Source of the DNA: Escherichia phage ECP2309
Sequence record: PP464953.1
Length of the DNA: 64,000 nt
Direction: 5' to 3' (one strand)
Made by a program: the position numbers and the translations under genes. Every line of letters starts with the position of its first letter. Positions within the stretch are counted from its first letter, which is position 1. The notes beneath the pieces were generated by a model that was given only the letters and a program-made list of their open reading frames with translations, was not told the DNA's origin and did no database searches. Positions 434 through 15,069 of this stretch are shown here, in pieces.

Positions 434-550
434 CTTGACAAAGAGGAGAAAAACTTGTCTGACACTTTTGCCACTTTTGACACTTTTACCTTTGACACAA
501 TGTCACACAATATGCCATAATCTGACACCTTATACACTTTCGACACAATA
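434..550. repeat. cluster of TGACAC(TTTT) direct repeats
   Basis: TTGACA/TGACAC copies at ~436, 460, 477, 492, 523, 542 and inverted TGTCAC at ~501; no ORF of 60 aa or more is credible here. Confidence 0.6.
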
Positions 551-585
551 ACGACTGTTATTATTTCATGTTTCATTGTTCACGT

Positions 586-645
586 ATAGACTATTCCCGC
601 ATAGACTGTTTACGCCTGGATAGTTTACACCTTGACAGTTTACAC
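586..645. repeat. tandem ~15-bp direct repeats with core GTTTAC
   Basis: atagactgtttacgcc / tagtttacacc / cagtttacac read directly; further copies near 235, 1047, 1091 and inverted near 379. Confidence 0.6.
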
Positions 646-657
646 AAAGATGATAAG

Positions 658-896
658 CCATGACATTCGTTTGCATGATAACAATTAACAAGTTAATAAT
701 ATATGACATAATATAAAAGCAGGGCAACTATTAGCAGATCTATAGTTGCCTTGCTTGTTATGTCATGATTAACTAAATACAAGGCAACTATGATCTGATT
801 AATAGATTGCAGACAAACTATCACGGGGGTGATTGTTACTGCTTTTATATTATGTCGCGACTCCGTCGCGCCATGCCATTCGTTTGCATAGTTGCC
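658..896. repeat. nested direct/inverted repeat block
   Basis: ccatgNcattcgtttgcat at 658-676 and 871-889; 16-bp inverted repeat gacataatataaaagc (705-720) / gcttttatattatgtc (841-856); GGCAACTAT at 723-731 and 783-791 with inverted ATAGTTGCC at 742-750 and 888-896. Confidence 0.65.
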
Positions 897-1500
897 TTAT
901 TGTTACAGGTAAAACAATTACATTGTTAACTATTTCTTATCTTTCTCTTAGTCATCTAATGATTCCAGTCAGTATAGTTATGTGCAGTAAACATTAGACG
1001 ACTAAAGATTTCTCTGATTATAGTAACCTATCGTGACAATTTAGGACTGTTTACGAAAAATGTTGACACTTGAGCTGATTTATGTTATGCAGTTTACACG
1101 AATAATTATTTTATGCAGGTATTGACTATTCCGTTATTCTGTGGTTGGAATAAATACTTTGCAGGCTATAGAATGATGTGCGTACGTGAATTCTGAGATC
1201 TGGCGGCTATAGTTACACCCGATTTTTCACGTAGGACACGCTTTTGTGGTTGTGTAAGTGTATGACTTATAAGGGTTTTTAATTGTTGACAGTATACTGA
1301 AGATGTGTATCAGGTTAAATTTTGTGCAATAGTTGCATTACGTGCATTTTTGGAAGGAAAAACGTGTAAAAATGGCCCTGCTACCACACAATGAAAGATT
1401 ATGCAATAGTTATTTTCCATGTATATTTGTACAGTATGTGGGATTGATGGCTAGTCAATTATTCCACTTGCCAGGTAGGGCCGTTTATGGTAGGAGAAGA

Positions 1501-1533
1501 GCAGACAAAAAGAAAGGGGCCTTTAAGCCCCTT
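1501..1533 (-). terminator. rho-independent terminator closing the early array
   Basis: stem AAGGGGC/GCCCCTT followed on the minus strand by TCTTTTTGTCT; 20 nt downstream of the stop at 1552. Confidence 0.6.
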
Positions 1534-1551
1534 GATAATTCAGTTAAGAAA

Positions 1552-1971
1552 TTATAATGATTCGTATATTTCAAAAATCCGATTTGCCAGGTCGTTACGG
1601 TAGCGGAATTTTTCCTCACGTTTGATCATAAGATCTTTATAGCCGTACTCTTTAAGCACTTCATTAACTTTATGGCGGCATACTTTCATATTATCCTGCG
1701 CGTCACCAATAAATCTGTTGCTATGGTGCATGGCTTTAATTTCTTCTTCCAGGACCAGGGCAACTATGCGGACCGGATCAAGCTGATAGGCGGTAACATC
1801 CATGCGGCATTGTAAACGGCTTTTTACGTCTGCCACCGGATATACTGCAACCTCTTCCCCGTCAACATTGACAATAATTAGTTTACCATCGATTTCGAAT
1901 CCTTTCGCCGCCGGACCGTGACAAAAAGCGTTATCAAAGCTATATGCCGGATTATTAGATTTAATGTTCAT
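1552..1971 (-). CDS. hypothetical early protein
   Basis: track ORF 139 aa; ATG preceded by AAGAGGT. Confidence 0.6.
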   Translation of the reverse strand: MNIKSNNPAYSFDNAFCHGPAAKGFEIDGKLIIVNVDGEEVAVYPVADVKSRLQCRMDVTAYQLDPVRIVALVLEEEIKAMHHSNRFIGDAQDNMKVCRHKVNEVLKEYGYKDLMIKREEKFRYRNDLANRIFEIYESL

Positions 1972-2115
1972 GGTGTTTTTACCTCTTAGTTAATTTTCTT
2001 ACAACTTCCCTTCAAAAAAGAATATAGCAAAACTGCCGATCCCTGTCAACCAGGGATAGCATAATTTTTATGTGATCAAGGGGCTTTATTGCCCCTGACC
2101 ATGTAACTTGTTGTA

Positions 2116-2379
2116 TTATTTGTTGCTCATCCAGTTTTCCCAAGCTGCCTGATAATCTGCCTCACTACGGCGGATCTCTTCTTGCTCTTCAAGGCGGATC
2201 TCTTCTTCCAGGTACCCCAAGATGTCAGCCTTTTTAGTCTGGCGTAGCATCCAGTCATCTTTTTTGCGAGTGAAGATCTTATAAGCTTTCTCGCAAACCT
2301 CTTTTTTGCTACCTTTCTGGACTTCAAGAACACGATAAGCCATATATTGAACTAATTTGAGCTGATCAAGACGTTTCAT
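2116..2379 (-). CDS. hypothetical early protein
   Basis: track ORF 87 aa; SD AAAGAGGT; own promoter and hairpin upstream. Confidence 0.6.
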   Translation of the reverse strand: MKRLDQLKLVQYMAYRVLEVQKGSKKEVCEKAYKIFTRKKDDWMLRQTKKADILGYLEEEIRLEEQEEIRRSEADYQAAWENWMSNK

Positions 2380-2433
2380 GATGTTTACCTCTTTGTGCGG
2401 TTCTGATTAGTGGGCCTTTTGGCCCGTGTCATT

Positions 2434-2462
2434 ATCTTATTACTTATGGCGGCAGAATTCAA
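2434..2462 (-). promoter_or_regulatory. sigma70-like promoter TTGAAT-N17-TAAGAT
   Basis: read on minus strand; followed by hairpin GGGCC-TTTT-GGCCC (2412-2425) and SD before ATG at 2379. Confidence 0.5.
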
Positions 2463-2712
2463 GCGTTTTTAATTGATAATCTTCCTCAGCCTGGAGTACG
2501 ACCGCCTCGATCATTTCGTTGGCATTGTTAAAGCCATAACCTTTAGCGAACTCATCCGCGCCACCTTCGTGATCATGTTCTGCGTTCATCGCTTCCACAA
2601 AATGGAATTCCAAATTGTTGAGGTAGGGGCTTGATGTTCCGTCCTCTTTTTCGATGAGATCCCAAATAGCATTAAAACGTGATTCGACTTCTTGATTAAT
2701 CCAGCTTGACAT
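2440..2712 (-). CDS. hypothetical early protein
   Basis: track ORF 90 aa; SD AGGAGAGAGG. Confidence 0.6.
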   Translation of the reverse strand: MSSWINQEVESRFNAIWDLIEKEDGTSSPYLNNLEFHFVEAMNAEHDHEGGADEFAKGYGFNNANEMIEAVVLQAEEDYQLKTLEFCRHK

Positions 2713-2766
2713 AGTGTTTTCCTCTCTCCTGGTTGTTGTGTGGGCACTTTTGCCCCTTCAAGATAA

Positions 2767-2795
2767 ATGTTACCTCACCCCATGGCAGATGTCAA
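2767..2795 (-). promoter_or_regulatory. sigma70-like promoter TTGACA-N17-TAACAT
   Basis: followed by hairpin GGGCA..TGCCC (2742-2756) then SD and ATG at 2712. Confidence 0.55.
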
Positions 2796-2826
2796 CGGTT
2801 TTTATAGTTCTTATATGACAGGCAGG

Positions 2827-2845
2827 CCCGGTGATTGTCTCCCCC
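2827..2845 (-). repeat. GGGAGACAAYCACCGGG motif copy
   Basis: reverse complement of the motif found on the plus strand at 12451-12468 and 12585-12603. Confidence 0.5.
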
Positions 2846-2929
2846 TGTTCCCAAGTGCCGCCCGTTTAATAAGAATAGCAAAAGGGGCCGAACAAGTCAA
2901 CCCCAAAATCAGTACCAAAACACTTTTAT

Positions 2930-3241
2930 TTATACGGTCCGATCATTGGCCTTTGTCCAGGACCTGGCGATCCGTTTCCCGGTCACCTGGAACGGAGGCT
3001 GCATTGTGTGTAATGAGTCCAGAGTAAGGGAGGACCGTTTACGGCGTATCTTCAGGATCGCTAACGTATTGTCCATCTCACGGCCAGGTCCTGGGCGGTA
3101 TGGTGTGCCTCCAGCGTTAAGGTTGATGATCTCATGTATTGAGATCCGGCGTTGTTTTGCTTCCGCATCTTTGAAGATAGCCAGCGGAGGCGCTATGCGT
3201 TGCCGATACCAATCTAAAACGGTTGGCGTAATAGCGATCAT
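2930..3241 (-). CDS. hypothetical protein
   Basis: track ORF 103 aa; start overlaps upstream stop (ATGA). Confidence 0.5.
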   Translation of the reverse strand: MIAITPTVLDWYRQRIAPPLAIFKDAEAKQRRISIHEIINLNAGGTPYRPGPGREMDNTLAILKIRRKRSSLTLDSLHTMQPPFQVTGKRIARSWTKANDRTV

Positions 3242-3429
3242 ATTTTACCCCCTATGTAGTCCGGTCGGTTTTTCTCTGTCATACGCTTAAGCAATTCTTG
3301 CATGTTGCTTATGGCTTGTAGTGTATCCTCTTCAAGGGATGAATCAAGATAATCAGGATCATTCTTCACCTTGCAATGATTATGATAACGCAGTACCGCC
3401 AGTACTTTTTTAACTTCTTCCGCTGTCAT
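3238..3429 (-). CDS. hypothetical protein
   Basis: track ORF 63 aa; weak SD. Confidence 0.45.
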   Translation of the reverse strand: MTAEEVKKVLAVLRYHNHCKVKNDPDYLDSSLEEDTLQAISNMQELLKRMTEKNRPDYIGGKI

Positions 3430-3574
3430 TATCGCGCCTAAAACAATGAGTTAATATATAACACCAGATCGCTGACTACCAGGACAACATTAATCAGCAC
3501 ATACCTAACCATAAAGGGAAAGATCGCCAACATTGCCGCCACGATCCCCATGGTAATAATTATCTTTCTCATGG

Positions 3575-3859
3575 TTAACGGTTCACGTAAGTTTTCCCGT
3601 TCACGGTTATGGGCAGATCCTCCAGGTCTGGATCTTCCTTAAGGTCGCGAGCAAGCTCACCGCACCGGATACCCTCGAATCCGTAGTACTCTGTTGTGCC
3701 GTCCTTAAAAGTTTTAGCGGCAAGGCATAAGCGATAAGTAACCCCGATTTGATTGACGGCATGAATATCCGTTAGATTAACCTCTTTTGCCAGCTCTTTA
3801 GCCATTACAGGCGCATTAAGTCCAACAACCAGGGTAACCACTGCGATCATCTTTTTCAT
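3575..3859 (-). CDS. secreted protein with N-terminal signal peptide
   Basis: MKKMIAVVTLVVGLNAPVMA signal-like N-terminus; SD AAGAGGA. Confidence 0.6.
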   Translation of the reverse strand: MKKMIAVVTLVVGLNAPVMAKELAKEVNLTDIHAVNQIGVTYRLCLAAKTFKDGTTEYYGFEGIRCGELARDLKEDPDLEDLPITVNGKTYVNR

Positions 3860-3950
3860 TGTGTCTATCCTCTTTCTGCTACGTTTAAGGCGGCGGTAAC
3901 CGCCTGTTTATGCTTTGTTGGTTAATTTTCAGGTATCTGTATAAATTAAA

Positions 3951-4166
3951 CTATGCTGTACGCTCAACTATAACAACGGTTTGGGGGATCTCCCCTTCCA
4001 CCACTAGTAAGGCCTTTTTCTGCGTGATAGATATCTTTACCCGTTGCAGCGTGGCGGTGAAGTCTTTCATTTCGTCACGCGGTGTTTTAGTGCAGTACCA
4101 GATCTCAGGCTTGCCGATCTGTAAGTTGCGTAAAAATTCCGTTTTGCCTGTTTTGTTAGTGATCAT
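3951..4166 (-). CDS. hypothetical protein
   Basis: track ORF 71 aa, colinear with neighbours; the competing plus-strand ORF 3910-4302 looks non-protein-like. Confidence 0.45.
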   Translation of the reverse strand: MITNKTGKTEFLRNLQIGKPEIWYCTKTPRDEMKDFTATLQRVKISITQKKALLVVEGEIPQTVVIVERTA

Positions 4167-4357
4167 TTGCCAACCTCACCCGATACCGTTGGAAGACAAG
4201 ATCATATTAGACATGGTTGCAATCAGGCCAATACCCAGGGCAATAACCAAGATCACTGCATCGATTAATTTCTGTTTCATGGTGTTTATTCTCTTCTGTT
4301 AGTAACCTTATTCATGGGGCCGCTACCACAGCCCCAGGGTAAGGCAGCTATGTGCTT

Positions 4358-4603
4358 TTAGTGTTTCATTCCAACCATCGCGGCACGGATCGCCGTAGTG
4401 CTGTACTTGAAGCCGTCCGGGGTCTTATCTTGTCCGGTTAGCTCCAGAAAAAGCATCATATCCCGCGCCGCATCATTACGATTAGCATTGGCGTTAATAA
4501 AGCCTTGGGCCAACCGGTACAATGACTCATCGTTATTAATCCAAAGGCTTACATTCCAATGAGTTTTGTTTTTGTAACCGTTATAACCTTTATTGCTTTT
4601 CAT
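4358..4603 (-). CDS. hypothetical early protein
   Basis: track ORF 4358-4684 trimmed to internal ATG (M28) with SD AGAGGT; the extension covers promoter and UTR. Confidence 0.55.
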   Translation of the reverse strand: MKSNKGYNGYKNKTHWNVSLWINNDESLYRLAQGFINANANRNDAARDMMLFLELTGQDKTPDGFKYSTTAIRAAMVGMKH

Positions 4604-4655
4604 GGTGTTTACCTCTTCTTTGTTCCAGGTGGCGGACCATTCCACCGCCTTATGT

Positions 4656-4684
4656 ATTATGCTTTGTAAGATGGCTGTTGTCAA
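4656..4684 (-). promoter_or_regulatory. sigma70-like promoter TTGACA-N17-CATAAT
   Basis: read on minus strand; 5'UTR hairpin at about 4628-4649. Confidence 0.55.
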
Positions 4685-4690
4685 ACTATT

Positions 4691-4870
4691 TTAACGATAA
4701 TCATCGTACGCTTTATTAACCTGGCGGATATAACATTCAAAAGCCAGATCAATAGATTTATATTCACGGATATACTCACCATAGGAAACCACATACATTT
4801 CTATAGCTTCCTCATATGCGAGGAGAATAGAATCTAAGCCTACGATCTCAGTCTTTGCAATAATAGCCAT
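4691..4870 (-). CDS. small hypothetical protein (59 aa)
   Basis: hand-translated MAIIAKTEIVGLDS...DDYR; below track size cutoff. Confidence 0.4.
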   Translation of the reverse strand: MAIIAKTEIVGLDSILLAYEEAIEMYVVSYGEYIREYKSIDLAFECYIRQVNKAYDDYR

Positions 4871-4945
4871 GATTTTTATCCTCTTTGTAGTTGGTGGGGT
4901 TCGTTGCCCCCTTTGATTTATATATTACAGTCTTATATGGTCATG

Positions 4946-5179
4946 TCAACTATTTTCAAAAAATTTTTCTGCTGTGATATTCTTCCCGGTAGGGTTCGCT
5001 ACTTTCAAAATTTTATCATGCACTGGACGCCCAAAAGAATAAGCGCCGTACACAGTAAACCAATAATCGCCGTCAGGTTGTACTATTACTGCCGCATATG
5101 GTACGCCTTTTTCGTTTTTGCTGACAAAATAGATCACGTTGCCATTAATAGCCTCGGCGCGTTTAATTTGTTCCATCAT
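4946..5179 (-). CDS. hypothetical protein
   Basis: track ORF 77 aa. Confidence 0.5.
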   Translation of the reverse strand: MMEQIKRAEAINGNVIYFVSKNEKGVPYAAVIVQPDGDYWFTVYGAYSFGRPVHDKILKVANPTGKNITAEKFFENS

Positions 5180-5234
5180 GATGATTTGCCTCTCTTTATT
5201 TTCATAATTGGGGGCCTTTTCGGCCCCGCCAGGT

Positions 5235-5519
5235 TTATTTATTGATAGCGTGCAGCGGGAAAGCTACGCCAGGTTGATAAATAACCTTTACAACCTCATC
5301 AGGACAAAAGAAGTTGCAGAACTCACCGCAATAGGCCTCATCCTCTTTCAACTCTTCATCAACATACTCAAAAAAGTAGTCGATGCTTGGATAATCCTGG
5401 CCGTGATTATAGTCAACCATCGTTAATAATAACTCTTGATCATTCCGTAGGATGTGCATACCCGCTTTTAAGTATTTTGCTTCCATTTCTACTACATTGC
5501 CAGCGGTAACAATAGCCAT
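5235..5519 (-). CDS. hypothetical early protein
   Basis: track ORF 94 aa; SD TAGGAG. Confidence 0.6.
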   Translation of the reverse strand: MAIVTAGNVVEMEAKYLKAGMHILRNDQELLLTMVDYNHGQDYPSIDYFFEYVDEELKEDEAYCGEFCNFFCPDEVVKVIYQPGVAFPLHAINK

Positions 5520-5574
5520 GATTTTAACTCCTATCTATCTGGTCAACGATTGGGGGCCTCCCCCTCGACAACTC

Positions 5575-5604
5575 TTATTATCCATATTGTCGGGAATGAT
5601 GCAA
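5575..5604 (-). promoter_or_regulatory. sigma70-like promoter TTGCAT-N18-TAATAA
   Basis: followed by hairpin GGGGG..CCCCC (5552-5564). Confidence 0.45.
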
Positions 5605-5650
5605 GTACTTCTTTAAAAATTTTTTAAGCGCCCCGTATGCCGTTGTAACG

Positions 5651-5686
5651 CCAAAATAATAAAGGCCATGCAACCGCATGGCCTTT
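5651..5686 (-). terminator. rho-independent terminator
   Basis: stem AAAGGCCATGC/GCATGGCCTTT followed on minus strand by ATTATTTTGG; a second, plus-oriented hairpin AGGCCC..GGGCCT + TATTTTG lies at 5705-5730. Confidence 0.6.
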
Positions 5687-5721
5687 ATGTGATTATATTG
5701 CTGTAGGCCCTGCCTGGGGCC

Positions 5722-6072
5722 TTATTTTGCATTCTTGCCTGTATTGCCGCCACGGTACCAGCGTTTGCGGTGAAAATGGTAATAATCACCCTCGGCATTA
5801 AACATCAGATGATTTTCAATAACCAGCTTACGAAGGTGGGCCGGATCTTGTTCCATTCTTGCCAGATTCCGGCGGCTGTTACGTAAGCGTATAAATTCCA
5901 TATTCAGGCCGTTGATTGCAGCATGGATGTCAAAGTAACCACCTTTGAGACGTTCACGCATGGCGTTAAGCTCAACACAATATACAGATTTCTCACAAAT
6001 CAAGGTATTAGCTAGGGCGCGGACCTGGGCAAGGGGGTTAAGCTCATTAAGGTAATATAGTTTGACTTTCAT
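5722..6072 (-). CDS. hypothetical protein
   Basis: track ORF 116 aa. Confidence 0.55.
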   Translation of the reverse strand: MKVKLYYLNELNPLAQVRALANTLICEKSVYCVELNAMRERLKGGYFDIHAAINGLNMEFIRLRNSRRNLARMEQDPAHLRKLVIENHLMFNAEGDYYHFHRKRWYRGGNTGKNAK

Positions 6073-6089
6073 AAAATCGCCTGCTGAAA

Positions 6090-6389
6090 TTAGTTTGAGA
6101 AAACATCGTTCACAATAGCGATCACAATGCCGCCCACCTTGTCACGGTCAGCAATGCACAAATCACCATGGATCATGCGGTAGTCTGGATGATCTTTCAC
6201 AGAATAGTCAATAAGTGTTTTCTTGTCGTCCAGCTTCGTAACTTCCATTCTCATAACGATATGAGAATCATCAAAGGCATTATTCCGAAAAGTCATAGCC
6301 TGACCGCCAGGGCACCCGGTGATCTCAACTTCCACGCCGTCTACGATCTGACCATCAAAGAAATAGAGATTATTGGCGGGTATAAACAT
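6090..6389 (-). CDS. hypothetical protein
   Basis: track ORF trimmed to ATG (M8) with AAGGAG 8 nt upstream. Confidence 0.55.
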   Translation of the reverse strand: MFIPANNLYFFDGQIVDGVEVEITGCPGGQAMTFRNNAFDDSHIVMRMEVTKLDDKKTLIDYSVKDHPDYRMIHGDLCIADRDKVGGIVIAIVNDVFSN

Positions 6390-6433
6390 GATCATTGCTC
6401 CTTTTTGCACTGATTATTTTAACAGGGTTTAAA

Positions 6434-6478
6434 TTTACTTTATTGATGGCCCTGGAGTCAAGGCCATCTAAAAATAAA
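6434..6478 (-). repeat. palindromic promoter/operator element, copy 1
   Basis: tttactttattGATGGCCctggagtcaaGGCCATCtaaaaataaa; minus-strand TTGACT inside the palindrome, N18, TAAATT. Confidence 0.7.
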
Positions 6479-6480
6479 TT

Positions 6481-6681
6481 TTACAGATCTACAATCTCTT
6501 TAATTCGTTTTACTGCTGCCTCAGCGCCTTGAGGGTAGAAATTATGATAACCAATCACGCGGGTAATACTGATCGCCGCTTGGTGGTCCTCGTAGTCGCC
6601 TTTGAATATTTCTTGACCATCAACCAGCACAGCAATTTTTTCTTCTTTTTTGAAGTTAATAACGCGGATATTGTTGCTCAT
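6481..6681 (-). CDS. hypothetical protein
   Basis: track ORF 66 aa. Confidence 0.5.
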   Translation of the reverse strand: MSNNIRVINFKKEEKIAVLVDGQEIFKGDYEDHQAAISITRVIGYHNFYPQGAEAAVKRIKEIVDL

Positions 6682-6782
6682 TTTGTTTCTCCTTTTGGAA
6701 CTTTGTCTGTGTGGTGGGGAGTGTCTCCCCGTTGATTGTTATTATCCATATTCTGGACCGGATTGCAACACTCAGGAAGAAA

Positions 6783-6822
6783 AATTTTTTGAAAAAAGTT
6801 AGGCCCCCAGGGATCGGGGGCC
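6783..6822 (-). terminator. rho-independent terminator
   Basis: stem GGCCCCC/GGGGGCC followed on minus strand by a T-run. Confidence 0.6.
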
Positions 6823-6826
6823 GTTA

Positions 6827-6946
6827 TCAGTTGCTTACAGCGATAAAATACATCCCTACGCCTAACAATATTTCAAGGGCGATGATCTCAAGCCATACCA
6901 TAACACGGCGCGCCTTATCGGTGCGGGGCTTATCCTTGGTTGTCAT
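6827..6946 (-). CDS. small hydrophobic peptide (39 aa)
   Basis: hand-translated MTTKDKPRTDKARRVMVWLEIIALEILLGVGMYFIAVSN; terminator directly downstream. Confidence 0.35.
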   Translation of the reverse strand: MTTKDKPRTDKARRVMVWLEIIALEILLGVGMYFIAVSN

Positions 6947-7165
6947 CGTCTCCCCCTTCCCTCCTGCTAGCAGTTACGTGGTTTGCAATGGCCCCCAGTA
7001 GTCCGATCACGACACACATCGCAAGAAAAATTATCTCTCCCGTTGTTCGATCCATTGTTATAAAACCTCTCAAGATCAGGCCTAAAAGTAAATCTTTCGT
7101 TATTGAATCCGTCACGCCAGGCGGCTGGCTTCAAATCTTCACTAAATGGATTAATTAACGTGGCA

Positions 7166-7537
7166 TTATTTAAACGGTTGGCCCACATATTTTCTATTCC
7201 TCTCAAATAAGCGATCCGCCTCAGTTAAACAAATCTCATGGGCGTGATCTCTGGTTTTAGCTTCATCGAAAACCTGTTGTGCAAGGCTGCAACGTAGGGA
7301 GACTGGGAGATCACTATAATAGGCGTTGACAAACGTTTGAGCGTCGTACAGGTCTGAAAATACTTTACCCTTTCTATTATTCCCCTTGTCAACAATTGCA
7401 AGGATAACCAATACAATAGTTGCAACCACCCCCAGGAAAATAGATATAATAAACCATAAAAAGGCGGATCTCCCCATCTTGCCAGCGATCCAGGCGTTAA
7501 ACAAGGCAACCAATATAGCCAAAATAATAAATTCCAT
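7166..7537 (-). CDS. membrane protein (two predicted TM helices)
   Basis: track ORF trimmed to M12 with SD AAGAGGT; hydrophobic stretches FIILAILVALF and WFIISIFLGVVATIVLVILAIV. Confidence 0.55.
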   Translation of the reverse strand: MEFIILAILVALFNAWIAGKMGRSAFLWFIISIFLGVVATIVLVILAIVDKGNNRKGKVFSDLYDAQTFVNAYYSDLPVSLRCSLAQQVFDEAKTRDHAHEICLTEADRLFERNRKYVGQPFK

Positions 7538-7601
7538 TCTATGTACCTCTTTTACAGTTCTGATCAACAATAAGGCGGCAAATATGCCGCCTGTTACCTG
7601 A

Positions 7602-7982
7602 TTAAAAATTATCGCCGTAAATCTTTCCGCTTTCTACCCATACCACCACGCGAGGCATACTATCCCACACGTCTTGTTTTAGATTGAGCGCGTGCAATTC
7701 TTCGGTGGTGCTCATACCGGGCACGGGCTGATTGTATACTGCAAAACGACCACCCGCATAATCATAGGCCAGGGTTAAATCACACTGGATCATCTTTTTG
7801 ATCATGGCATTAAGCATGGCGTTAGCCGCATACTGATCACGTTTTAAAGGCAACTCTTTGATTAGTTTGCGATAGTTTTCGATATGGTCGCACACTGTTT
7901 CACGCGGAAGATCTTTCATATCTTCACGGAATGTAACCAGGTTAAACATAACGGTGTCAATAGCCTTGGTAGTGGTTTTCAT
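7602..7982 (-). CDS. hypothetical early protein
   Basis: track ORF 126 aa; SD AAGAGGA. Confidence 0.6.
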   Translation of the reverse strand: MKTTTKAIDTVMFNLVTFREDMKDLPRETVCDHIENYRKLIKELPLKRDQYAANAMLNAMIKKMIQCDLTLAYDYAGGRFAVYNQPVPGMSTTEELHALNLKQDVWDSMPRVVVWVESGKIYGDNF

Positions 7983-8071
7983 GATTTTATCCTCTTTGTT
8001 TTGTGTGGGGCAAGACGTTTGCCCCTTGAGTTTTTAATATAGCAGGTTTTTAGATTATTGCAACACTTTAT

Positions 8072-8695
8072 TTATGAAAAACTCATCTCCCCATATTCAT
8101 CCACATCAAACCGCCAATCATTGGCCTCGATAAGGCCGATCAAGTATTCTGCGGTGAACTGTTCTAGATAGGCCTCCTCCAGGTCTACGTAAACCTTGCG
8201 GGATAGCTCCCGTACCGTCTCGGTGATCAGTTCTTCCAGGTCTTCCACTTTGTTTTCTTGTTTGGCGGTCAGATCTAGCCAAGTGGTATCAATGTACCCG
8301 CTTACAGTGTTTTCATGGCTGTAATGGCTGTACTTGTCGCGTTCAACACTGGCTGATAACTCGCCATCGTGCATTGTGCCGAACAAGTGACGAATTGATC
8401 TGAACTTGGTCAGGGCCTTGACTTTACGCAAAAATTTTTCTAAATCCACGTTTTCAGCACTGATTGACGCGCCGTCACCCTGGCACCAAAAGCCGGACCA
8501 ATGTACTTCGGTATCTTCAAGGCCGTACTCTGGAAAAACTTGTTCTTTATAGTATTCAATTACATTTTCTGCGAAAAAATCATCCCCGCTGCGTTCTTCT
8601 CTTTCGCGGACCATTTCAATGGCTTTTTCTTTTTGTTCGTCGGTTAGCACGTCGAAAGATAAATTGTAACCTGTGGTAATGTTAACGGTGGTCAT
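8072..8695 (-). CDS. hypothetical acidic early protein
   Basis: track ORF 207 aa; SD AGGAGA; own promoter. Confidence 0.65.
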   Translation of the reverse strand: MTTVNITTGYNLSFDVLTDEQKEKAIEMVREREERSGDDFFAENVIEYYKEQVFPEYGLEDTEVHWSGFWCQGDGASISAENVDLEKFLRKVKALTKFRSIRHLFGTMHDGELSASVERDKYSHYSHENTVSGYIDTTWLDLTAKQENKVEDLEELITETVRELSRKVYVDLEEAYLEQFTAEYLIGLIEANDWRFDVDEYGEMSFS

Positions 8696-8752
8696 GATAT
8701 TTTCTCCTGTTTTCTTTGTTAGTGGCGGGAAGTTTTCCCGCCTGTGTGTTTA

Positions 8753-8780
8753 ATTATACTTATTGAGATTTACTTGTCAA
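8753..8780 (-). promoter_or_regulatory. sigma70-like promoter TTGACA-N16-TATAAT
   Basis: followed by hairpin GGCGGGA..TCCCGCC (8724-8742), SD, ATG at 8695. Confidence 0.65.
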
Positions 8781-9030
8781 CACTATTTTTTAAATTATTG
8801 TGGCGCAAAATGTTTAAAATCTCCTCAACGTCATCAACACGGCGGCAATTTTTAAACGCTACCAATTGCCCCATGATTTTAATCACTGGGCGGCCTTGCC
8901 AGTGACCCTGGAGAAAGCGCGCCTTGACTTTATCGGTGGAACTATCACGCCACCAAATAGCCTTGTTGTTGCAGTAGTAAAAATTATTCAGGATAACATC
9001 AACTTTATCAAAATTTTTTAATTTACGCAT
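8770..9030 (-). CDS. hypothetical protein
   Basis: track ORF 86 aa; SD AAAGGAG. Confidence 0.6.
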   Translation of the reverse strand: MRKLKNFDKVDVILNNFYYCNNKAIWWRDSSTDKVKARFLQGHWQGRPVIKIMGQLVAFKNCRRVDDVEEILNILRHNNLKNSVDK

Positions 9031-9062
9031 GGCGTTTACTCCTTTCTCTCTTTGATGTGGTT

Positions 9063-9090
9063 AGTATAGCTAACCTGTTGACGATGTCAA
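9063..9090 (-). promoter_or_regulatory. sigma70-like promoter TTGACA-N16-TATACT
   Basis: read on minus strand upstream of ATG at 9030. Confidence 0.55.
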
Positions 9091-9210
9091 TGATATTTTT
9101 AACGCCATAAAACGGCCCTGGGCGATGTTTTCAGGTTAAGGGGGGCGATTGCATAGGTGGGGGCCTTTTTGGCGCTTACAGGGCCAACCAGGGGCGCTAT
9201 TAGTAGGATA

Positions 9211-9240
9211 GAAATAAAAAGCCCCGCACAATGGCGGGGC
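9211..9240 (-). terminator. rho-independent terminator
   Basis: stem GCCCCGC/GCGGGGC followed on minus strand by TTTTTATTTC; T-rich on plus side as well. Confidence 0.6.
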
Positions 9241-9248
9241 GTTGGTTG

Positions 9249-9446
9249 TTATTTGTCTTTATGGCGATATCGTTCTGCCTGTCGTTCACGTTCCAAAAGT
9301 AGGCCGGGCAATTTACGATCATAATGATTGCGCCAGATCTTCCCAAACCTTTTTGGCTTATTCAGTTTATTGTTACGCTGGCGGCGTTCTGGCAGCTCTT
9401 CGGAATCATGAGGGCGCTTTACAATTTTCTCGAAATTAATTTTCAT
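9249..9446 (-). CDS. small basic protein
   Basis: track ORF trimmed to ATG (M9) with G-rich SD. Confidence 0.5.
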   Translation of the reverse strand: MKINFEKIVKRPHDSEELPERRQRNNKLNKPKRFGKIWRNHYDRKLPGLLLERERQAERYRHKDK

Positions 9447-9789
9447 ATCTTCCCCCCTTGCTAACTTCAATATTGGCCTGAATAGCCCGGATGCGGCGCT
9501 TTATAACTTCCTGATCTGTGTGGTCGTATCCCCAAAAGTCTACAATTTTTGCGCCACCCGCTTCCAGGCGGTATAGTGTTTCCTGCATTTTGTAAGCCGG
9601 GATCGGTCGCGGTGTTACTTGGTCGCCTTCTTTATTTTTATACTTTATAATATAATCTTCGTTATCGTTGAATGCCCAAAATGGATATTCTGCAAGGGCG
9701 GTACTTCCTCTTTCCTTTTTATCCTGGATCTTATTTACAATTAAAGCCGTAGCAATAGCGCCAATAATAAAACTAGCCCCGCTAATCAT
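9436..9789 (-). CDS. membrane-anchored protein
   Basis: track ORF 117 aa; hydrophobic N-terminus; SD AAGGAG. Confidence 0.55.
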   Translation of the reverse strand: MISGASFIIGAIATALIVNKIQDKKERGSTALAEYPFWAFNDNEDYIIKYKNKEGDQVTPRPIPAYKMQETLYRLEAGGAKIVDFWGYDHTDQEVIKRRIRAIQANIEVSKGGRYEN

Positions 9790-9865
9790 GTGTACTTTCT
9801 CCTTTCATGGTGTTAATAAATTATCTTTATAGATGGCCCTGCAACCAGGACCACCGAAAAAATAA

Positions 9866-10111
9866 CTATTTCACAATGCCTACAAAACAGATCCCGCCTT
9901 CACCTATGTAAGCAATATCGGTAACTTTATAATTTGTCAAGATCTGTTTATTTAGTTCATTAATAAAATCGGTCATTGCGTTGGTGTAGTTGTCTTCCAT
10001 ATCTAAGGCATAATCCCAGGCGTAAGCCTTTTTACGTCCGAAGCCTTTTACCATGATACGGGCGCTTTTGGTGTTGGTGGGCGCATAATATTTGGTGATT
10101 AGTGCTGCCAT
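9866..10111 (-). CDS. hypothetical protein
   Basis: track ORF 81 aa; SD GAGGAG. Confidence 0.6.
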   Translation of the reverse strand: MAALITKYYAPTNTKSARIMVKGFGRKKAYAWDYALDMEDNYTNAMTDFINELNKQILTNYKVTDIAYIGEGGICFVGIVK

Positions 10112-10151
10112 GGTTTTAACTCCTCATTAGTTCAGTGTTAACAGTGTAAAG

Positions 10152-10196
10152 TTTACTTTATTGATGGCCCTGGAGTCAAGGCCATCTAAAAATAAA
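10152..10196 (-). repeat. palindromic promoter/operator element, copy 2
   Basis: near-identical to copy 1; TTGACT-N18-TAAACT on minus strand. Confidence 0.7.
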
Positions 10197-10197
10197 T

Positions 10198-10539
10198 TTA
10201 CTCGTTTTCTTCCAGCTCTGAAAGCTCTTCTTTCACTTCTTCGAGCTCTGTCTGCAATTCTTGGTACTCTTCATCGTCCTCAATATCCAGGCTGTCGATG
10301 TAGTCGCTAAATCCGCAGCGGTAAGCGATAGGATCTAGCTCCTTGAGGATACGCGACGGAAGAAAAGAAATGTTTCCGATCATAATTTCGCCGTAGATCT
10401 CGTCTAACCATTCATCATAGTTTTCGTCGTACTTGTCCTCGTCGATTTCAAAGTTATCGATCTTGTTCTCAAGGTCTGCGATCTGTTTTTTCAGCGCGGC
10501 GATCTGCATAGCTTTTTCTGCGGCGGTCATAGTAGTCAT
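10198..10539 (-). CDS. strongly acidic coiled-coil protein
   Basis: track ORF 113 aa, very D/E-rich; SD AAGGAG. Confidence 0.6.
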   Translation of the reverse strand: MTTMTAAEKAMQIAALKKQIADLENKIDNFEIDEDKYDENYDEWLDEIYGEIMIGNISFLPSRILKELDPIAYRCGFSDYIDSLDIEDDEEYQELQTELEEVKEELSELEENE

Positions 10540-10590
10540 GGTGTTTTCTCCTTTTGTGTGTTCTGGGAAGTTTTCCCGTTTACGTGTTTA

Positions 10591-10618
10591 AGTATACCGA
10601 TTTGGGTTAGCTTGTCAA
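10591..10618 (-). promoter_or_regulatory. sigma70-like promoter TTGACA-N16-TATACT
   Basis: followed by hairpin and SD AAGGAG before ATG at 10539. Confidence 0.6.
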
Positions 10619-10738
10619 TTAAAAATTTAAGAAAAATTTTGCAAAACTGTTGGCGCTACTCATTAACATTTGCGCCAGGATGTAACCGACAACGCAAACG
10701 ATAATAGTTACCTTTGTGTATTGGCGTGTAGTGCTCAT
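10619..10738 (-). CDS. small hydrophobic peptide (39 aa)
   Basis: hand-translated MSTTRQYTKVTIIVCVVGYILAQMLMSSANSFAKFFLNF; SD AGGGGG. Confidence 0.35.
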   Translation of the reverse strand: MSTTRQYTKVTIIVCVVGYILAQMLMSSANSFAKFFLNF

Positions 10739-10772
10739 CTTAAAGCCCCCTTTTTCGCTTAGTTGAGACTAG

Positions 10773-10816
10773 TTTACTTTATTGATGGCCCTGGAGTCAA
10801 GGCCATCTAAAAATAA
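10773..10816 (-). repeat. palindromic promoter/operator element, copy 3
   Basis: near-identical to copies 1 and 2. Confidence 0.7.
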
Positions 10817-10818
10817 AC

Positions 10819-11223
10819 TTAGTAAGTTTTCAGTACTTTACCGTCCAACCTGTCAAGCTGGATCTCGATAGCTGCAGAAAACCTATTGTACACCACGTCG
10901 CCCATAGAATCCAACCAATCTATGACGTTATACACCTGCTCTTTGTTCTTACAGGTCCGGATCCGTTTCATGATGTAAGCCGGATCAATATTGGTACTCT
11001 CGTCGGTGTTCCCCTGTACCTGGTTTGCCGTATTAGTTACATCTTTAATGGCCTTTACCACCACCTGGAAGGGCTTTAAGGTACCTTTTGCGTTCATCTC
11101 ACGCGCTTTTGCGGCGCGGTTGTTATATGTTACACAACGGCGGCAAATGTTGATCAAATGCATGTCAATAATTTTTTCATCGTTTGCCAGTTCATTCATG
11201 ATGCGGCGTACGTTCTTATTCAT
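10819..11223 (-). CDS. hypothetical early protein
   Basis: track ORF trimmed to ATG (M34); the extension runs through promoter, hairpin and the upstream gene. Confidence 0.6.
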   Translation of the reverse strand: MNKNVRRIMNELANDEKIIDMHLINICRRCVTYNNRAAKAREMNAKGTLKPFQVVVKAIKDVTNTANQVQGNTDESTNIDPAYIMKRIRTCKNKEQVYNVIDWLDSMGDVVYNRFSAAIEIQLDRLDGKVLKTY

Positions 11224-11272
11224 GATCTTTTTTCCTTTGTGTTGGCGGGAAACATTCCCGCCTTTTGTGCCC

Positions 11273-11300
11273 AGTTTACTTGAATTTTGCAGCGTGTCAA
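11273..11300 (-). promoter_or_regulatory. sigma70-like promoter TTGACA-N16-TAAACT
   Basis: followed by hairpin GGCGGGA..TCCCGCC (11244-11262). Confidence 0.6.
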
Positions 11301-11306
11301 CAATTT

Positions 11307-11705
11307 TTATTCGTGGGCGCATGTTACAATGTGCTTTTTATAGCCCAGGCGGTCAGCAAGTGCCGACAAAAACTCTTCTTCGTAGATCCAGCCGTCGGCA
11401 GTGATCCCCATAGCATTTAATGCGCTCTCAAGTGCTGCGTTGGCTTTATCATAACCGTGACCGCTCGCCTTGCCTCCAGTATAGCCGTACTTATTGTTCT
11501 TGTTGTCGTGTATCCAAAAAACGCAGTAGTGAGTGTTCCCGCTGGCGGCGGCATAATACCGGATCTCAGCTACTTCGTGCAAATTATTGTCATCGTCCAG
11601 GCCCACCAGATTATAAGCCTTGTAAAATCCACGATCACGGCGGCAGTTCTTGACATCAGAAAAAGAAAAGTCCGCATTATCAAAATTAAAGGTAGTGGTT
11701 TTCAT
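11307..11705 (-). CDS. hypothetical early protein
   Basis: track ORF 132 aa; SD AAGAGGA. Confidence 0.6.
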   Translation of the reverse strand: MKTTTFNFDNADFSFSDVKNCRRDRGFYKAYNLVGLDDDNNLHEVAEIRYYAAASGNTHYCVFWIHDNKNNKYGYTGGKASGHGYDKANAALESALNAMGITADGWIYEEEFLSALADRLGYKKHIVTCAHE

Positions 11706-11769
11706 GATTTTATCCTCTTAGTGTCTTTTGTGCTTTTAGTGTATTTGGTGTCGGACTGTATGTCAATAC

Positions 11770-11967
11770 TTATTTTTTATTAAACCAGTGGTTGATCTGG
11801 CCTTTTGTCAGGGCGCAACGATTAAGCTGTTGCCGAGTATAGCTCTGACCGCGACGGAATTTATAAAGGCCTTGCCCGTTGTTGATGGTTACATCCACCC
11901 GGCAAACCATTTGATCGGTGACCACCTGGCGAGTGTTGCGACGTACTTTGATTCCGTAGGCGTTCAT
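11770..11967 (-). CDS. small basic protein
   Basis: track ORF 65 aa; SD AGAGAGGA. Confidence 0.5.
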   Translation of the reverse strand: MNAYGIKVRRNTRQVVTDQMVCRVDVTINNGQGLYKFRRGQSYTRQQLNRCALTKGQINHWFNKK

Positions 11968-12020
11968 GATTTTTTATCCTCTCTGTTAATTGGTGTGGTG
12001 TTGTTCACCTTGCGAGGATA

Positions 12021-12049
12021 AGAATAACAATAACTGTACGAGCTGTCAA
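12021..12049 (-). promoter_or_regulatory. sigma70-like promoter TTGACA-N17-TATTCT
   Basis: read on minus strand upstream of ATG at 11967. Confidence 0.5.
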
Positions 12050-12386
12050 CCATTAGTTAGAATTATTTTTTTTGGGCAGAATTCTCCAGCCGCCGCCCCT
12101 ACCAGGTTAACCATCGTTTTTTCGTACTCTTCTTTATGTTCCAACGCTCCCGCCATAGCCTTTTCAACCAGGGCGATAGCCTCAGCGTCATTAATCGCTA
12201 CATTTCCAGGGGATCAAATTACCTTTCATTTTTGTACCTCCTCTTCAATTGTTACCTGCCCTATAGCATAGGCCTACCAGGTTTGCAAGCTTTCACTCTC
12301 TCCTACCTGGTCAGTCAGGTCCTGCCAGGTTGGCCCCGCCAGGTTGCAACGGTTAGCGCATCAGGTTAGAATTTTTTTGAAAAGTG

Positions 12387-12510
12387 TTGACAGCGGCCCC
12401 GCCAGGTGGCACAATATACCTATCGGAAGGACGGCAGGCACCGGTGACGGGGGAGACAACCACCGGGGATGGGCGCTGCATAAAATGAGAACGGTTATCA
12501 TTATCATTTA
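12387..12510 (+). other. structured non-coding unit A (candidate sRNA or regulatory element)
   Basis: starts with TTGACA; contains GGGAGACAACCACCGGGG and ends with near-palindrome GGTTATCATTATCATT. Confidence 0.4.
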
Positions 12511-12530
12511 AAAATTTATGCAAAAAATCC

Positions 12531-12640
12531 TTGCTTTCTTTGTCCTGTGTGATACTATAATAACAAGCCGGGGCAACAGGGGCCGGGAGACAATCACCGG
12601 GGGTGCCCGTTATTCTGCAAACGAGAATGATTATCATTCA
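12531..12640 (+). other. structured non-coding unit B, related to unit A
   Basis: TATAAT at 12556-12561; contains GGGAGACAATCACCGGGGG and near-palindrome AATGATTATCATTC. Confidence 0.4.
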
Positions 12641-12765
12641 AAATTCTAAATGAGAACTTTTCGCATTTCATAAATTTAGTTAGCATGCTAATTACCTACC
12701 GTGACAATTCTATATAAAATAATACCTCCTTAAATATTTCCATATACAAATTTTAAAAATCCATT

Positions 12766-12932
12766 TCCGAAAACGAAAAATCGATTTCGTCCCCAAAAAT
12801 TTCAGGTCGAGCTCCGGAACGATTTCCAGAAAATCTGATTCAGAAAACGAAAAACAGATCGAGTACTAAGAAATTTATCGAGAAAAATTTTCAGAAAATT
12901 CAATCTTTGAAACGAAAAACAGATCGAGTACT
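12766..12932. repeat. iteron-like direct repeats GAAAACGAAAAA(C/T)(A/C)GATCGAGTACT
   Basis: copies at 12769-12790, 12843-12867, 12909-12932 in AT-rich DNA with many shorter repeats. Confidence 0.6.
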
Positions 12933-13243
12933 GAGAGAGATGTATCAAAACCTACTGAGAATAATGGGCTTATTGTTATAAAAGGTCAAAGGTAAGCTGG
13001 GAAAGTTCTGGTAGAAGGGTGAGGGTATGTGCGGAAAATCTGGAATAGTAACTTAAAGTACGGTGCGAACGATAGAATGAGCAGCACATCTTATCGCGCC
13101 TGTCTTGAAAAATCCATTTTAGTTTTCGATCCATTTTCTGATTTTCTAAGAATTTTAAAATATCCGGCCAGGTAAAATATCAAAAGGAGGAAATCCATTT
13201 TAGAAATCCTCCTTATACTTGATGTGCCAGGGATTTTCAAGTA

Positions 13244-14005: not shown

Positions 14006-14025
14006 ACTTTATCTCCTGCACTTTC

Positions 14026-14358: not shown

Positions 14359-14368
14359 GGTACGATAC

Positions 14369-14560: not shown

Positions 14561-14623
14561 AATTTATCCCTCTCTGCTAGTCTATGTTTGTATTATATAC
14601 TGCAGTTTTCAGATGTCAACCTT

Positions 14624-14818: not shown

Positions 14819-14820
14819 AA

Positions 14821-15015: not shown

Positions 15016-15069
15016 AGTGCTCCCCTGTCTTAATCGTTGTGGTGACTATACCACCTTAAAATATAGCTG

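Follow-up and report, generated by a model that had tools for sequence, protein, structure and literature searches.

G/C hairpins behind the early promoters of Escherichia phage ECP2309 and other phages as candidate 5' stabilizers of short messages

Why would a phage encode a short G/C hairpin directly behind the promoter of one small early gene after another? The question is raised by Escherichia phage ECP2309 (sequence record PP464953.1), of which we analyzed a stretch of 64,000 nucleotides (nt), referred to below as the window, and within it a block of early genes at positions 1552-12049. Sequence identity of the window reaches 99.9% with Escherichia phage ECP2303 and 97% with FV3, which places its source among the rV5-like myoviruses of the genus Vequintavirus. 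Every gene of the block lies on the minus strand, and each is a hypothetical protein in all the phage records compared. In the first 16 kb, a promoter scan detected 68 sigma70-like sites, against 37 ± 6 in shuffled sequences, and the best of them were nearly all on the minus strand, directly 5' of genes.

The promoters themselves are not new. The rV5 genome paper catalogued 33 consensus-like sigma70-type promoters together with rho-independent terminators, and there the block is part of one long leftward transcription unit (PMC3606486). The same paper makes no mention of post-promoter hairpins, of a fixed spacing or of the 51-nt repeat described below (PMC3606486), nor did we find an earlier description of such hairpins in the literature on rV5, phi92, PVP-SE1, Vequintavirinae transcriptomes and mycobacteriophage promoters, the PVP-SE1 genome paper excepted. 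A search of window positions 1-16000 against Rfam 15 at a permissive E-value returned only two sub-threshold matches at chance level, and the hairpins thus correspond to no curated RNA family. In the record of phage Murica, terminator labels are attached to hairpins with a T-tract and to the 51-nt repeat, and to none of the post-promoter hairpins. The promoters were therefore already known, and the hairpins behind them are unannotated in the phage records compared.

Layout and conservation of the early cassettes

The original prediction, made from the letters alone, held that at least ten early genes are each preceded by a near-consensus sigma70 promoter, a G/C hairpin without a U-tract and a strong Shine-Dalgarno sequence (SD). 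Ten minus-strand genes did have the full layout of promoter, G/C hairpin, unstructured A/C-rich linker, SD and ATG; we call this unit a cassette and name each one after its ATG. In all ten, a TTGACA-like -35 and a TATAAT-like -10 hexamer stand 16-18 bp apart and 5' of the gene, as in a sigma70 promoter. Eight of them score 9-12 out of 12 and the other two (ATGs 5519 and 2379) 8/12, and the -35 is invariant in the ten genomes aligned below. The example that had been singled out, TTGACA-N16-TATAAT at 8753-8780, is exact and lies on the minus strand (8780-8753). The hairpin begins 10-11 nt after the -10 in seven of the ten cassettes and 6, 8, 12 or 13 nt after it in the others, with a stem of 4-9 bp and an overall length of 13-22 nt. 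If transcription starts 6-8 nt after the -10, as predicted, the unpaired leader would measure 1-5 nt in nine cassettes and 8 nt in c10539, which would place the hairpins near the mRNA 5' end, as proposed. The 8 nt 3' of the stem are A/C-rich and contain 0-3 T (0-1 in eight cassettes), so that there is no U-tract and the denial of a terminator role in the original prediction stands. A linker of about 20-34 nt, with an SD of the AAGAGG or AGGAG type, leads from the hairpin to the ATG.

All cassettes read on the minus strand, and we give their -35, -10 and hairpin in that direction. The first, c11223 (11221-11300), has TTGACA at 11300-11295, TAAACT at 11278-11273, the hairpin GGCGGGAAtgtTTCCCGCC at 11262-11244 and its ATG at 11223. 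In c10539 (10537-10618; TTGACA 10618-10613, TATACT 10596-10591, ATG 10539) the hairpin GGGAAaacTTCCC at 10577-10565 is weak; this cassette is paralogous across 66 nt to c8695 (8693-8780; TTGACA 8780-8775, TATAAT 8758-8753, ATG 8695), whose hairpin is GGCGGGAAaacTTCCCGCC at 8742-8724. Further along lie c7982 (7980-8063; TTGCAA 8063-8058, TATATT 8041-8036, hairpin GGGGCAAacgtcTTGCCCC at 8025-8007, ATG 7982), c6681 (6679-6768; TTGCAA 6768-6763, GATAAT 6746-6741, hairpin GGGGAGacaCTCCCC at 6730-6716, ATG 6681) and c5519 (5517-5605), one of the two that score 8/12, with a weak -35 CTTGCA at 5605-5600, GATAAT at 5582-5577, the hairpin GGGGGaggCCCCC at 5564-5552 and ATG 5519. The remaining four are c4870 (4868-4949; TTGACA 4949-4944, TAATAT 4927-4922, hairpin GGGG(G)caacgaaCCCC at 4911-4896, ATG 4870), c4603 (4601-4684; TTGACA 4684-4679, CATAAT 4661-4656, hairpin GGCGGTGGAatggTCCGCCACC at 4649-4628 with a U.G pair, ATG 4603), c2712 (2710-2795; TTGACA 2795-2790, TAACAT 2772-2767, hairpin GGGCAaaagTGCCC at 2755-2742, ATG 2712) and c2379 (2377-2462; TTGAAT 2462-2457, TAAGAT 2439-2434, a weak promoter, then hairpin GGGCCaaaaGGCCC at 2425-2412 and ATG 2379). 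The stems vary within this one window (GGCGGGAA, GGGGCAA, GGGGAG, GGGGG, GGGCA, GGGCC, GGCGGTGG). The G-rich arm comes first in each of the window's thirteen hairpins without a U-tract; among the T-tract terminators, both arm orders occur.

It had also been suggested that the N-termini of several open reading frames (ORFs) are promoter and leader DNA read through in frame, and this holds for at least two of the mechanically called ORFs. The product annotated for ORF 10819-11322 (167 amino acids [aa]) has 134 aa, and the "start" of ORF 4358-4684 is the TTG of a -35 TTGACA, the real product having 81 aa.

The coupling of promoter and hairpin was assessed with strict definitions of both. Strict G/C hairpins occur at 3.24 per kb in the block and at 1.3 per kb in the remaining window, a 2.5-fold difference. 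In the block, 11 promoters score at least 10/12, and behind four of these a strict hairpin begins at a distance of 5-14 nt from the -10. The probability of this by chance is 2e-5 given the hairpin rate of the whole window and 3e-4 given the local one; outside the block, in the remaining 52 kb, one of 24 promoter-like sites has such a hairpin. The association of promoters and hairpins in the block is thus non-random. Folded from the predicted start to the ATG, the leaders (5' untranslated regions) form one 5'-proximal hairpin of -8 to -15 kcal/mol (-5.9 in c10539), with z scores of -2.2 to -4.8 in six of the ten. The energies were -14.6 kcal/mol for both c11223 (z -4.2) and c8695 (z -4.8), -14.2 for c4603 and -12.6 for c7982 (z -3.3), and the z scores were -3.4 for c2379, -2.8 for c6681, -2.3 for c4870 and -1.3 for c10539. 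In all ten, both minimum free energy and centroid folds show little or no pairing of the linker and SD.

We aligned the cassettes of ten Vequintavirus genomes, the window and nine relatives that are 90-99.9% identical overall. A locus search with the 207-aa protein gave two close loci and six remote ones, and the remote ones (L005-L010) were left out. Variable columns numbered 0 of 60 in the -35, 7 of 60 in the -10, 50 of 164 (30%) in the promoter spacer, 27 of 146 (18%) in the stems, 29 of 61 (48%) in the loops and 41 of 107 in the linker. The differences are significant by Fisher's test for stem versus loop (P=3e-5) and for stem versus spacer plus linker (P=1.3e-3), and the promoter hexamers also vary less than the spacer (P=9e-8). 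Such low variability of promoters and stems beside drifting loops indicates that the former are under selection and the loops are not. When each ortholog was folded separately, the stem was retained despite sequence change, barring a few single mismatches, through replacement of the loop or through indels that shift or lengthen the helix. The relative L004 has a U.G wobble in the c8695 stem (GGUGGGAA/UUCCCGCC) and a double compensatory change in the c5519 stem (GGGGG/CCCCC to GGAGG/CCUCC), and in the c4603 stem of the relative L017 a C.A mismatch is repaired to U-A.

As a separate observation, the SD, ATG and first five codons (MKTTT) are 97% identical between 7968-7999 and 11691-11722, and the sequence is found also at 4589-4620. 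Such identity between the otherwise different genes 7982 and 11705 suggests that cassette exchange or duplication reaches into the coding start.

Recurrence of the layout in other phages

In phi92 (Justusliebigvirus, Stephanstirmvirinae), which has one gene in common with the block, the layout is more regular. About twelve cassettes have the form TTGACA-N16/17-TAnnnT, then 9-13 nt (often ending in CACATAG), one of the stems GGCGGGAAAtggTTTCCCGCC, GGCGGCAatagTGCCGC, AGCGGGAAttgTTCCCGCT or AGGCGGTGGaatagcCCACCGCCT, and an A-rich linker with the SD. About eleven cassettes are present in ESCO5 (Phapecoctavirus) and a few in Av-05 (Avunavirus). In these three phages and the window, 9-14 nt separate the -10 from the start of the hairpin, and the distance from hairpin to ATG is looser (17-34 nt). 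Such closer coupling to the -10 than to the start codon would be expected of a role linked to the 5' end. The stems of phi92 and ESCO5 belong to the same sequence family as the window hairpins at 11262-11244, 8742-8724 and 4649-4628.

A covariance model of this core hairpin family was built from 17 members. The model found the family solely in early blocks, with 38 bits for the sense and 18 bits for the antisense strand, and gave no credible match in the window's other 52 kb. Of the window cassettes, c11223 scored 38.3 bits, c8695 33.3 and c10539 20.3. Three of the eight base pairs in the seed alignment are changed on both sides, a number reached by one of 500 shuffles; the search alignment, which mixes both strands, was left out of these counts. 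Extra copies were also detected ahead of genes that are missing from the window, which indicates that the cassettes behave as modules. In the Vequintavirus relatives L015 (12599-12625), L016 (12959-12985) and L018 (12976-13002), an extra core-family hairpin stands before a small gene that the window lacks, consistent with the gain and loss of whole promoter-hairpin-gene modules.

To look beyond this group, we scanned IMG/VR with three promoter-stem patterns, all counts being among the matches listed. The pattern TTGACA-N16-18-TAnnnT-N8-14-GGCGGGAA gave at least 129 matches, 24 of which (19%) have the complementary CCCGCC arm within 9 nt, where chance would give about 0.2%; this second arm was no part of the search pattern. 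In all the hairpin-complete matches the stem begins 9-12 nt after the -10, while the incomplete ones are spread over 8-14 nt, and an SD and start codon follow 3' of the stem in 21 of the 23 distinct hairpin-complete matches, mostly 13-26 nt away. The matching contigs are phi92-like and rV5-like (about 39-40% GC), with others at 44% and at 62-71% GC. Among the high-GC matches are Mycobacterium phage Thonko, where 3.5 kb hold four cassettes, and a contig related to Mycobacterium phage Imvubu. In these early-type regions of mycobacteriophages, TTGACA-N17-TAACTT or TAATGT is followed after 9-11 nt by GGCGGGAAnnnCCCGCC, an SD and a start codon; the loci are L037 (Thonko; 29-3650, minus strand of the locus), L079/L090/L094, L064, L071 and L073/L080. 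In Thonko, the promoter spacer itself is conserved among the four cassette copies.

Two control patterns behaved differently. With the arms reversed (TTCCCGCC first), none of 48 IMG/VR matches had a hairpin, and with another G-first stem of equal composition (GGGCGGAA) 2 of 120 did, both of which resemble real promoter-hairpin-SD cassettes. The GGCGGG(AA) stem is thus about ten times commoner than the stem of the same composition (24/129 versus 2/120). The promoter-hairpin-SD layout is a recurrent phage design in which the G-rich arm always comes first and GGCGGG is favored. Descent from duplicated cassettes can explain the family resemblance within the rV5/phi92 group, but not that of the mycobacteriophages.

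Possible roles of the hairpin

Palindromic arms with G first allow the plus strand to form the same hairpins, and for this reason we compared the folding of both strands. The sense RNA is more stable than the antisense in 25 of 30 hairpins (Wilcoxon P=0.0013), and every difference of at least 1 kcal/mol favors the sense strand, because recurrent G.U pairs become A.C on the other one. This bias is moderate evidence for a signal at the RNA level. The loops are 3-9 nt long and variable in sequence and length even between orthologs, and the half-site spacing ranges accordingly from 3 to 9 bp. Loops of variable length and stems that vary within one phage argue against a single dimeric DNA-binding protein, and free variation of the loop is what would be expected of a purely structural element.

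We lean, without strong conviction, toward the reading that the post-promoter hairpins are 5'-proximal stem-loops shielding the early mRNAs from the pyrophosphohydrolase RppH and from RNase E, a stabilizing role that we infer from the established biology of these two enzymes. A 5' end must be single-stranded for RppH and for the 5' sensor of RNase E, and this is accepted as the reason why 5' stem-loops stabilize ompA and papA messages (PMC3997798). Internal simple stem-loops are readily bypassed by scanning RNase E (PMC9943677), so that closeness to the 5' end should matter, and the stem-loop of the T7 gene 10 leader, placed 5' of a ribosome-binding site (RBS), raises mRNA level and expression (PMC6146998). 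Each cassette would then be a self-contained early-expression module read by the host sigma70 RNA polymerase. Transcription would start about 7 nt past the -10, as promoter geometry predicts, and the nascent RNA would present 1-5 unpaired nt and then a compact and stable stem-loop of G/C pairs; an unstructured A/C-rich linker would make up the remaining leader and leave the strong SD free. With the stem-loop in place, the 5' end would serve only poorly as a substrate, both for RppH and for the sensor of 5' monophosphates in RNase E, and the short monocistronic early mRNAs would persist longer and yield more protein. Several cassette genes end in a 3' hairpin, which would leave the message capped at both ends; where this is the 51-nt repeat, a long hairpin that begins at the stop codon, the message would be structured at either end.

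A number of observations weigh against this stabilizing role. Four good promoters of the block have no G/C hairpin (ATGs 11967, 11705, 9030 and 1971), all on the minus strand. At 11965-12049, TTGACA-17-TATTCT is followed by a 54-nt leader with only a weak GGUG/CACC stem (-4.5 kcal/mol) before ATG 11967. The leaders behind TTGACA-17-TACACT (11703-11766, ATG 11705; 0 kcal/mol) and TTGACA-16-TATACT (9028-9090, ATG 9030) are short and unstructured, and those of the promoters at 11766, 9090, 15073 and 14619 have no fold at all. At 1969-2057 (TTGACA-17-TATATT, 2049; ATG 1971), the -35 lies in the loop of the inverted repeat ATCCCTGgttgaCAGGGAT (2057-2039). Conversely, there are modules of hairpin and SD without a detectable promoter, namely those at 5227, 4336 and 3905 in the window and, most clearly, at 11957-12000 in ESCO5, whose phi92 homologue (15060-15143) does have a promoter. 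In the window, these minus-strand hairpins, none with a U-tract, are GGGGCCgaaaaGGCCCC at 5211-5227, 8 nt past the upstream stop and 31 nt ahead of ATG 5179; TGGGGCTGTGgtagCGGCCCCA at 4315-4336, ahead of ATG 4280 (fold z -2.9); and AGGCGGttaccgCCGCCT at 3888-3905, ahead of ATG 3859. Without a promoter of its own, a hairpin cannot be 5'-terminal on a primary transcript. Within the window alone, the asymmetry of G.U and A.C pairs is uninformative, as its stems are mostly perfect palindromes, and the power of the strand comparison comes mainly from the copies of phi92 and ESCO5; being related, these are not independent. The strict G-first polarity and the preference for GGCGGG are unaccounted for by a passive stabilizer. 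The predicted unpaired leaders, 3-5 nt in most cassettes and 8 nt in c10539, lie at the upper edge of what the classical 5' stem-loop stabilizers reportedly tolerate (Emory et al. 1992).

A link to phage stimulation of RNA decay is another weak point. The window encodes a 325-aa HNH-like protein (about 39.26-40.24 kb, plus strand), probably the homologue of rV5 gp11, which matches the PHROG family "HNH endonuclease" (E=9e-111), has no Pfam match, and is weakly similar to the families of T4 Srd and "decoy of host sigma70" (E=4e-9 to 5e-13; 3.6e-9 for the Srd PHROG). T4 Srd stimulates RNase E (PMC7430671), and the connection through this protein is weak and circumstantial. Divergent promoter-like sites lie at 39186 (minus) and 39200 (plus), the HNH-like gene being the one on the plus strand.

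The modules without a promoter may be relics of its loss, may form a barrier at the 3' end of the gene upstream, or may insulate the RBS. As obstacles to scanning they were dropped, since simple stem-loops are bypassed by RNase E (PMC9943677).

The unexplained polarity bears on a rather unlikely alternative, in which the hairpin is recognized specifically within the nascent RNA and serves either as a cis-acting modifier of the polymerase (put- or nut-like antitermination, or help with escape from near-consensus promoters or against pausing) or as the binding site of an RNA-binding regulator of the phage or the host. The stem family GGCGGGAA...TTCCCGCC is conserved across genera, CACATAG precedes it in phi92 and ESCO5, the same stem at the same spacing from the -10 recurs in mycobacteriophages, and both the G-first order and the excess of GGCGGG over the controls would fit a recognized signal; the weak terminator-like hairpins between cassettes could also require read-through. 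Yet the stems are diverse within the window, the loops of 3-9 nt vary even in orthologs, against a loop-reading protein such as lambda N, and put RNA is far larger than the one hairpin of 13-22 nt present here, where no boxA-like motif was seen. Antitermination is hardly needed where nearly every gene has its own promoter, and shared descent with stem change limited to G.U could explain resemblance and polarity within a lineage, although not why entero- and mycobacteriophages look alike. As models, boxB and put were rejected because of the variable loops and the size. Purine-rich initial transcribed sequences favor escape from very strong promoters, which could favor a G-rich first arm. We are doubtful, too, that the G-first GGCGGG(AA)...CCCGCC hairpin is a widespread early-gene element, repeatedly acquired by unrelated phages of Proteobacteria and Actinobacteria, that does more than cap passively and acts on the transcription complex or a conserved factor; it would do so by aiding escape from near-consensus promoters, by countering pausing or backtracking, or by loading a modifier onto RNA polymerase.

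The remaining alternatives seem less probable still. Near-perfect palindromes at about +4 to +22, just past the start site, occupy the classic position of a roadblock, and a dimeric phage protein binding them as DNA operators could shut off or gate the early promoters later, early shut-off being required somehow and many small phage proteins of no assigned role being encoded. The half-sites are conserved around a variable center, and most phi92 and ESCO5 sites, as well as the core family, share a GGCGG half-site core. We nevertheless regard an operator as improbable: half-sites differ widely between the cassettes of the window phage, their spacing of 3-9 bp changes between orthologs, which dimeric DNA binders rarely tolerate, and the recurrent G.U pairs are palindrome mismatches in DNA, yet it is the sense RNA that folds better (25/30). 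Moreover, four early promoters have no such site, and the same motif in phages of unrelated hosts would require the same repressor everywhere. A mainly translational hairpin, insulating the RBS from upstream sequence or read-through RNA and bounding an unstructured standby platform, has in our view an equally small chance. The unpaired linker and SD in every predicted fold, the hairpin-to-ATG distance within 17-34 nt, the persistence of hairpin and SD without promoters, which suits a role independent of the 5' end, and the higher expression given by a stem-loop 5' of three different RBSs (PMC6146998) all fit it. Spacing is tighter to the -10 than to the ATG, though, and the hairpin-less cassettes of the block have equally strong SDs and unstructured leaders; a translational effect is also compatible with stabilization and does not exclude it. 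Very improbable is a role as terminators or 3'-end barriers for the upstream transcript, or as stops for antisense transcription of the plus strand. Several hairpins score terminator-like on the plus strand, where the A-rich start region reads T-rich, the promoter-less ones lie 8-46 nt past stop codons, and 3' hairpins are known barriers to 3' exonucleases (PMC7509114); but a fixed offset of 9-12 nt from the next gene's -10 in many phages is not expected of such elements, the genuine T-tract terminators of the block are separate and of mixed arm polarity, and the Murica annotators labeled no post-promoter hairpin as a terminator. For lack of a coding-strand U-tract (0-1 T in the next 8 nt in eight of ten), simple terminators were rejected, as were antisense terminators, since the plus strand of the block has no promoter of at least 10/12 and no genes.

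Neighboring elements and comparison with known systems

The original prediction had offered processing sites as a second option for the hairpins. This could not be upheld for the short stems, whose 4-9 bp fall below the roughly 20 bp that RNase III requires, and we rejected them as RNase III sites; only the 51-nt repeat is plausible in this respect. The repeat occurs on the minus strand in three near-identical copies, at 10770-10820, 10149-10199 and 6431-6481, and in a diverged one at 9818-9868 (73% identity). The copy at 10770-10820 begins at the upstream stop codon and has the hairpin core GATGGCCTTGACTCCAGGGCCATC and a promoter-like TTGACT-18-TAAACT; in all four copies a -35 lies inside the hairpin, in its apical part. 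The sense strand folds into an interrupted helix of about 20 bp (-26.3 kcal/mol, z -7.0; antisense -19.2 kcal/mol), and neither strand has a U-tract, although the repeat is labeled a terminator in Murica. Its role may be that of a barrier at the 3' end, a regulated promoter or a site of the RNase III type. Like the 51-nt repeat, two further minus-strand sites, at 2884-2904 (GGGGttgacttgttcGGCCCC) and 2039-2057 (ATCCCTGgttgaCAGGGAT), hold the -35 of a good promoter-like site in the loop of their inverted repeat.

Six T-tract hairpins in the block or at its edge (9240, 7592, 6822, 5688, 2904 and 1533) resemble ordinary terminators. They lie on the minus strand at 9221-9240 (GCCCCGC...GCGGGGC, TTTTTATTT, with a T-tract); at 7573-7592 (AGGCGGCAtattTGCCGCCT, then TATTGTTG); at 6802-6822, with a T-tract and immediately 5' of the promoter at 6768; at 5659-5688 (13 pairs, then TATTTTGG); at 2884-2904 (GGGGttgacttgttcGGCCCC, then TTTTGC), where the loop holds the -35 of a promoter-like TTGACT-17-TATTCT; and at 1514-1533, where a hairpin with a T-tract closes the gene block.

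Several further features were noted around the block. The G/C-rich motif GGGAGACAAYCACCGG occurs at 2815-2845 (minus), 12449-12467 (plus) and 12585-12613 (plus), with its orientation reversed from one end of the block to the other; of these three copies, two are 3' of an extended -10 promoter-like site (2900 minus, 12387 plus). It folds no better than shuffled sequences (z about -1), and the copies may be small transcripts or DNA sites. There are no convincing genes in 12050-13250, where A/T-rich runs occur alongside direct repeats, each about 50 nt long (12756-12936, AAAACGAAAAA..GATCGAGTACT), or in 1-1500, with many short repeats (GTAAAC, TGTCA, GCCATG.CATTCGTTTGCAT). The two stretches, which could serve in replication or packaging, may correspond to the box marked "non-coding" on the map of rV5. 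Far from the block, at about 26976-26890 (minus), TTGACA-17-TACAAT is followed some 24 nt later by a hairpin with a U-tract (GCCCTGCCCGAAAGGGTGGGGCTTTTTGC) and then an SD; unlike the early-block cassettes, this site could be an attenuator or a short RNA.

If the hairpins act as their position suggests, the early program of these phages is built of compact, portable modules of host promoter, cap hairpin, open leader and SD, each giving a short message with protection at the 5' and often also the 3' terminus. This would explain the high expression of dozens of tiny early genes despite a host RNA decay that the phage may stimulate, and the cassettes would offer expression design a natural, evolution-tested library of parts. 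Recurrence in mycobacteriophages with a 9-12 nt offset and G first makes the general rule directly testable, while the strict polarity hints at something beyond protection from RNases. For annotation, the hairpins should not be labeled terminators, and ORF callers can extend starts back through them. The recurrence across phyla, with fixed spacing and strict polarity, is the part that might surprise a specialist.

As to mechanism, the hairpin is most likely a multi-copy, promoter-coupled variant of a known 5' stem-loop element, of which the closest examples are those of ompA (hp1) and papA (Emory, Bouvet, and Belasco 1992, as cited in PMC3997798). The phage hairpin, like these, is predicted to be a short, stable stem-loop at or near the 5' end, with a single-stranded RBS segment 3' of the hairpin and no requirement for a loop sequence, and both kinds are expected to hide the 5' end from RppH and RNase E. 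In contrast, the phage element comes in about ten copies per genome and dozens across the group, at a fixed distance from near-consensus promoters; it forms a sequence family, always G-first, and the stretch predicted to be unpaired at its 5' end, 3-5 nt in most cases, is a little longer. A phage-encoded, G-first stem-loop is found also in the gene 10 leader of T7, at the start of a highly expressed transcript and ahead of an unstructured, A-rich leader and a strong SD; it is in use as an expression enhancer. The T7 stem-loop, unrelated in sequence to those of the window, starts at +1 behind a late promoter of the phage polymerase, whereas ours are predicted at about +2 to +6 behind early promoters of host sigma70.

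With lambda nut and HK022 put, the window element shares a hairpin encoded just past early promoters and a predicted action in nascent RNA. Lambda boxB, however, has a conserved GNRA-like pentaloop and the N protein, and put consists of two stem-loops over about 70 nt, while here there is one short hairpin with a free loop, no boxA and one promoter per gene. The RNase III sites of the T7 early region are similar as intergenic hairpins without a U-tract that shape mRNA ends between early genes, but the enzyme requires helices of about two turns; of the elements here, only the 51-nt repeat, with its interrupted helix of about 20 bp, is of such a size, and it is distinct from the post-promoter hairpins. 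Finally, the promoters of the block belong to the 33 reported in the rV5 catalogue, and its T-tract hairpins match the terminator class reported there (PMC3606486).

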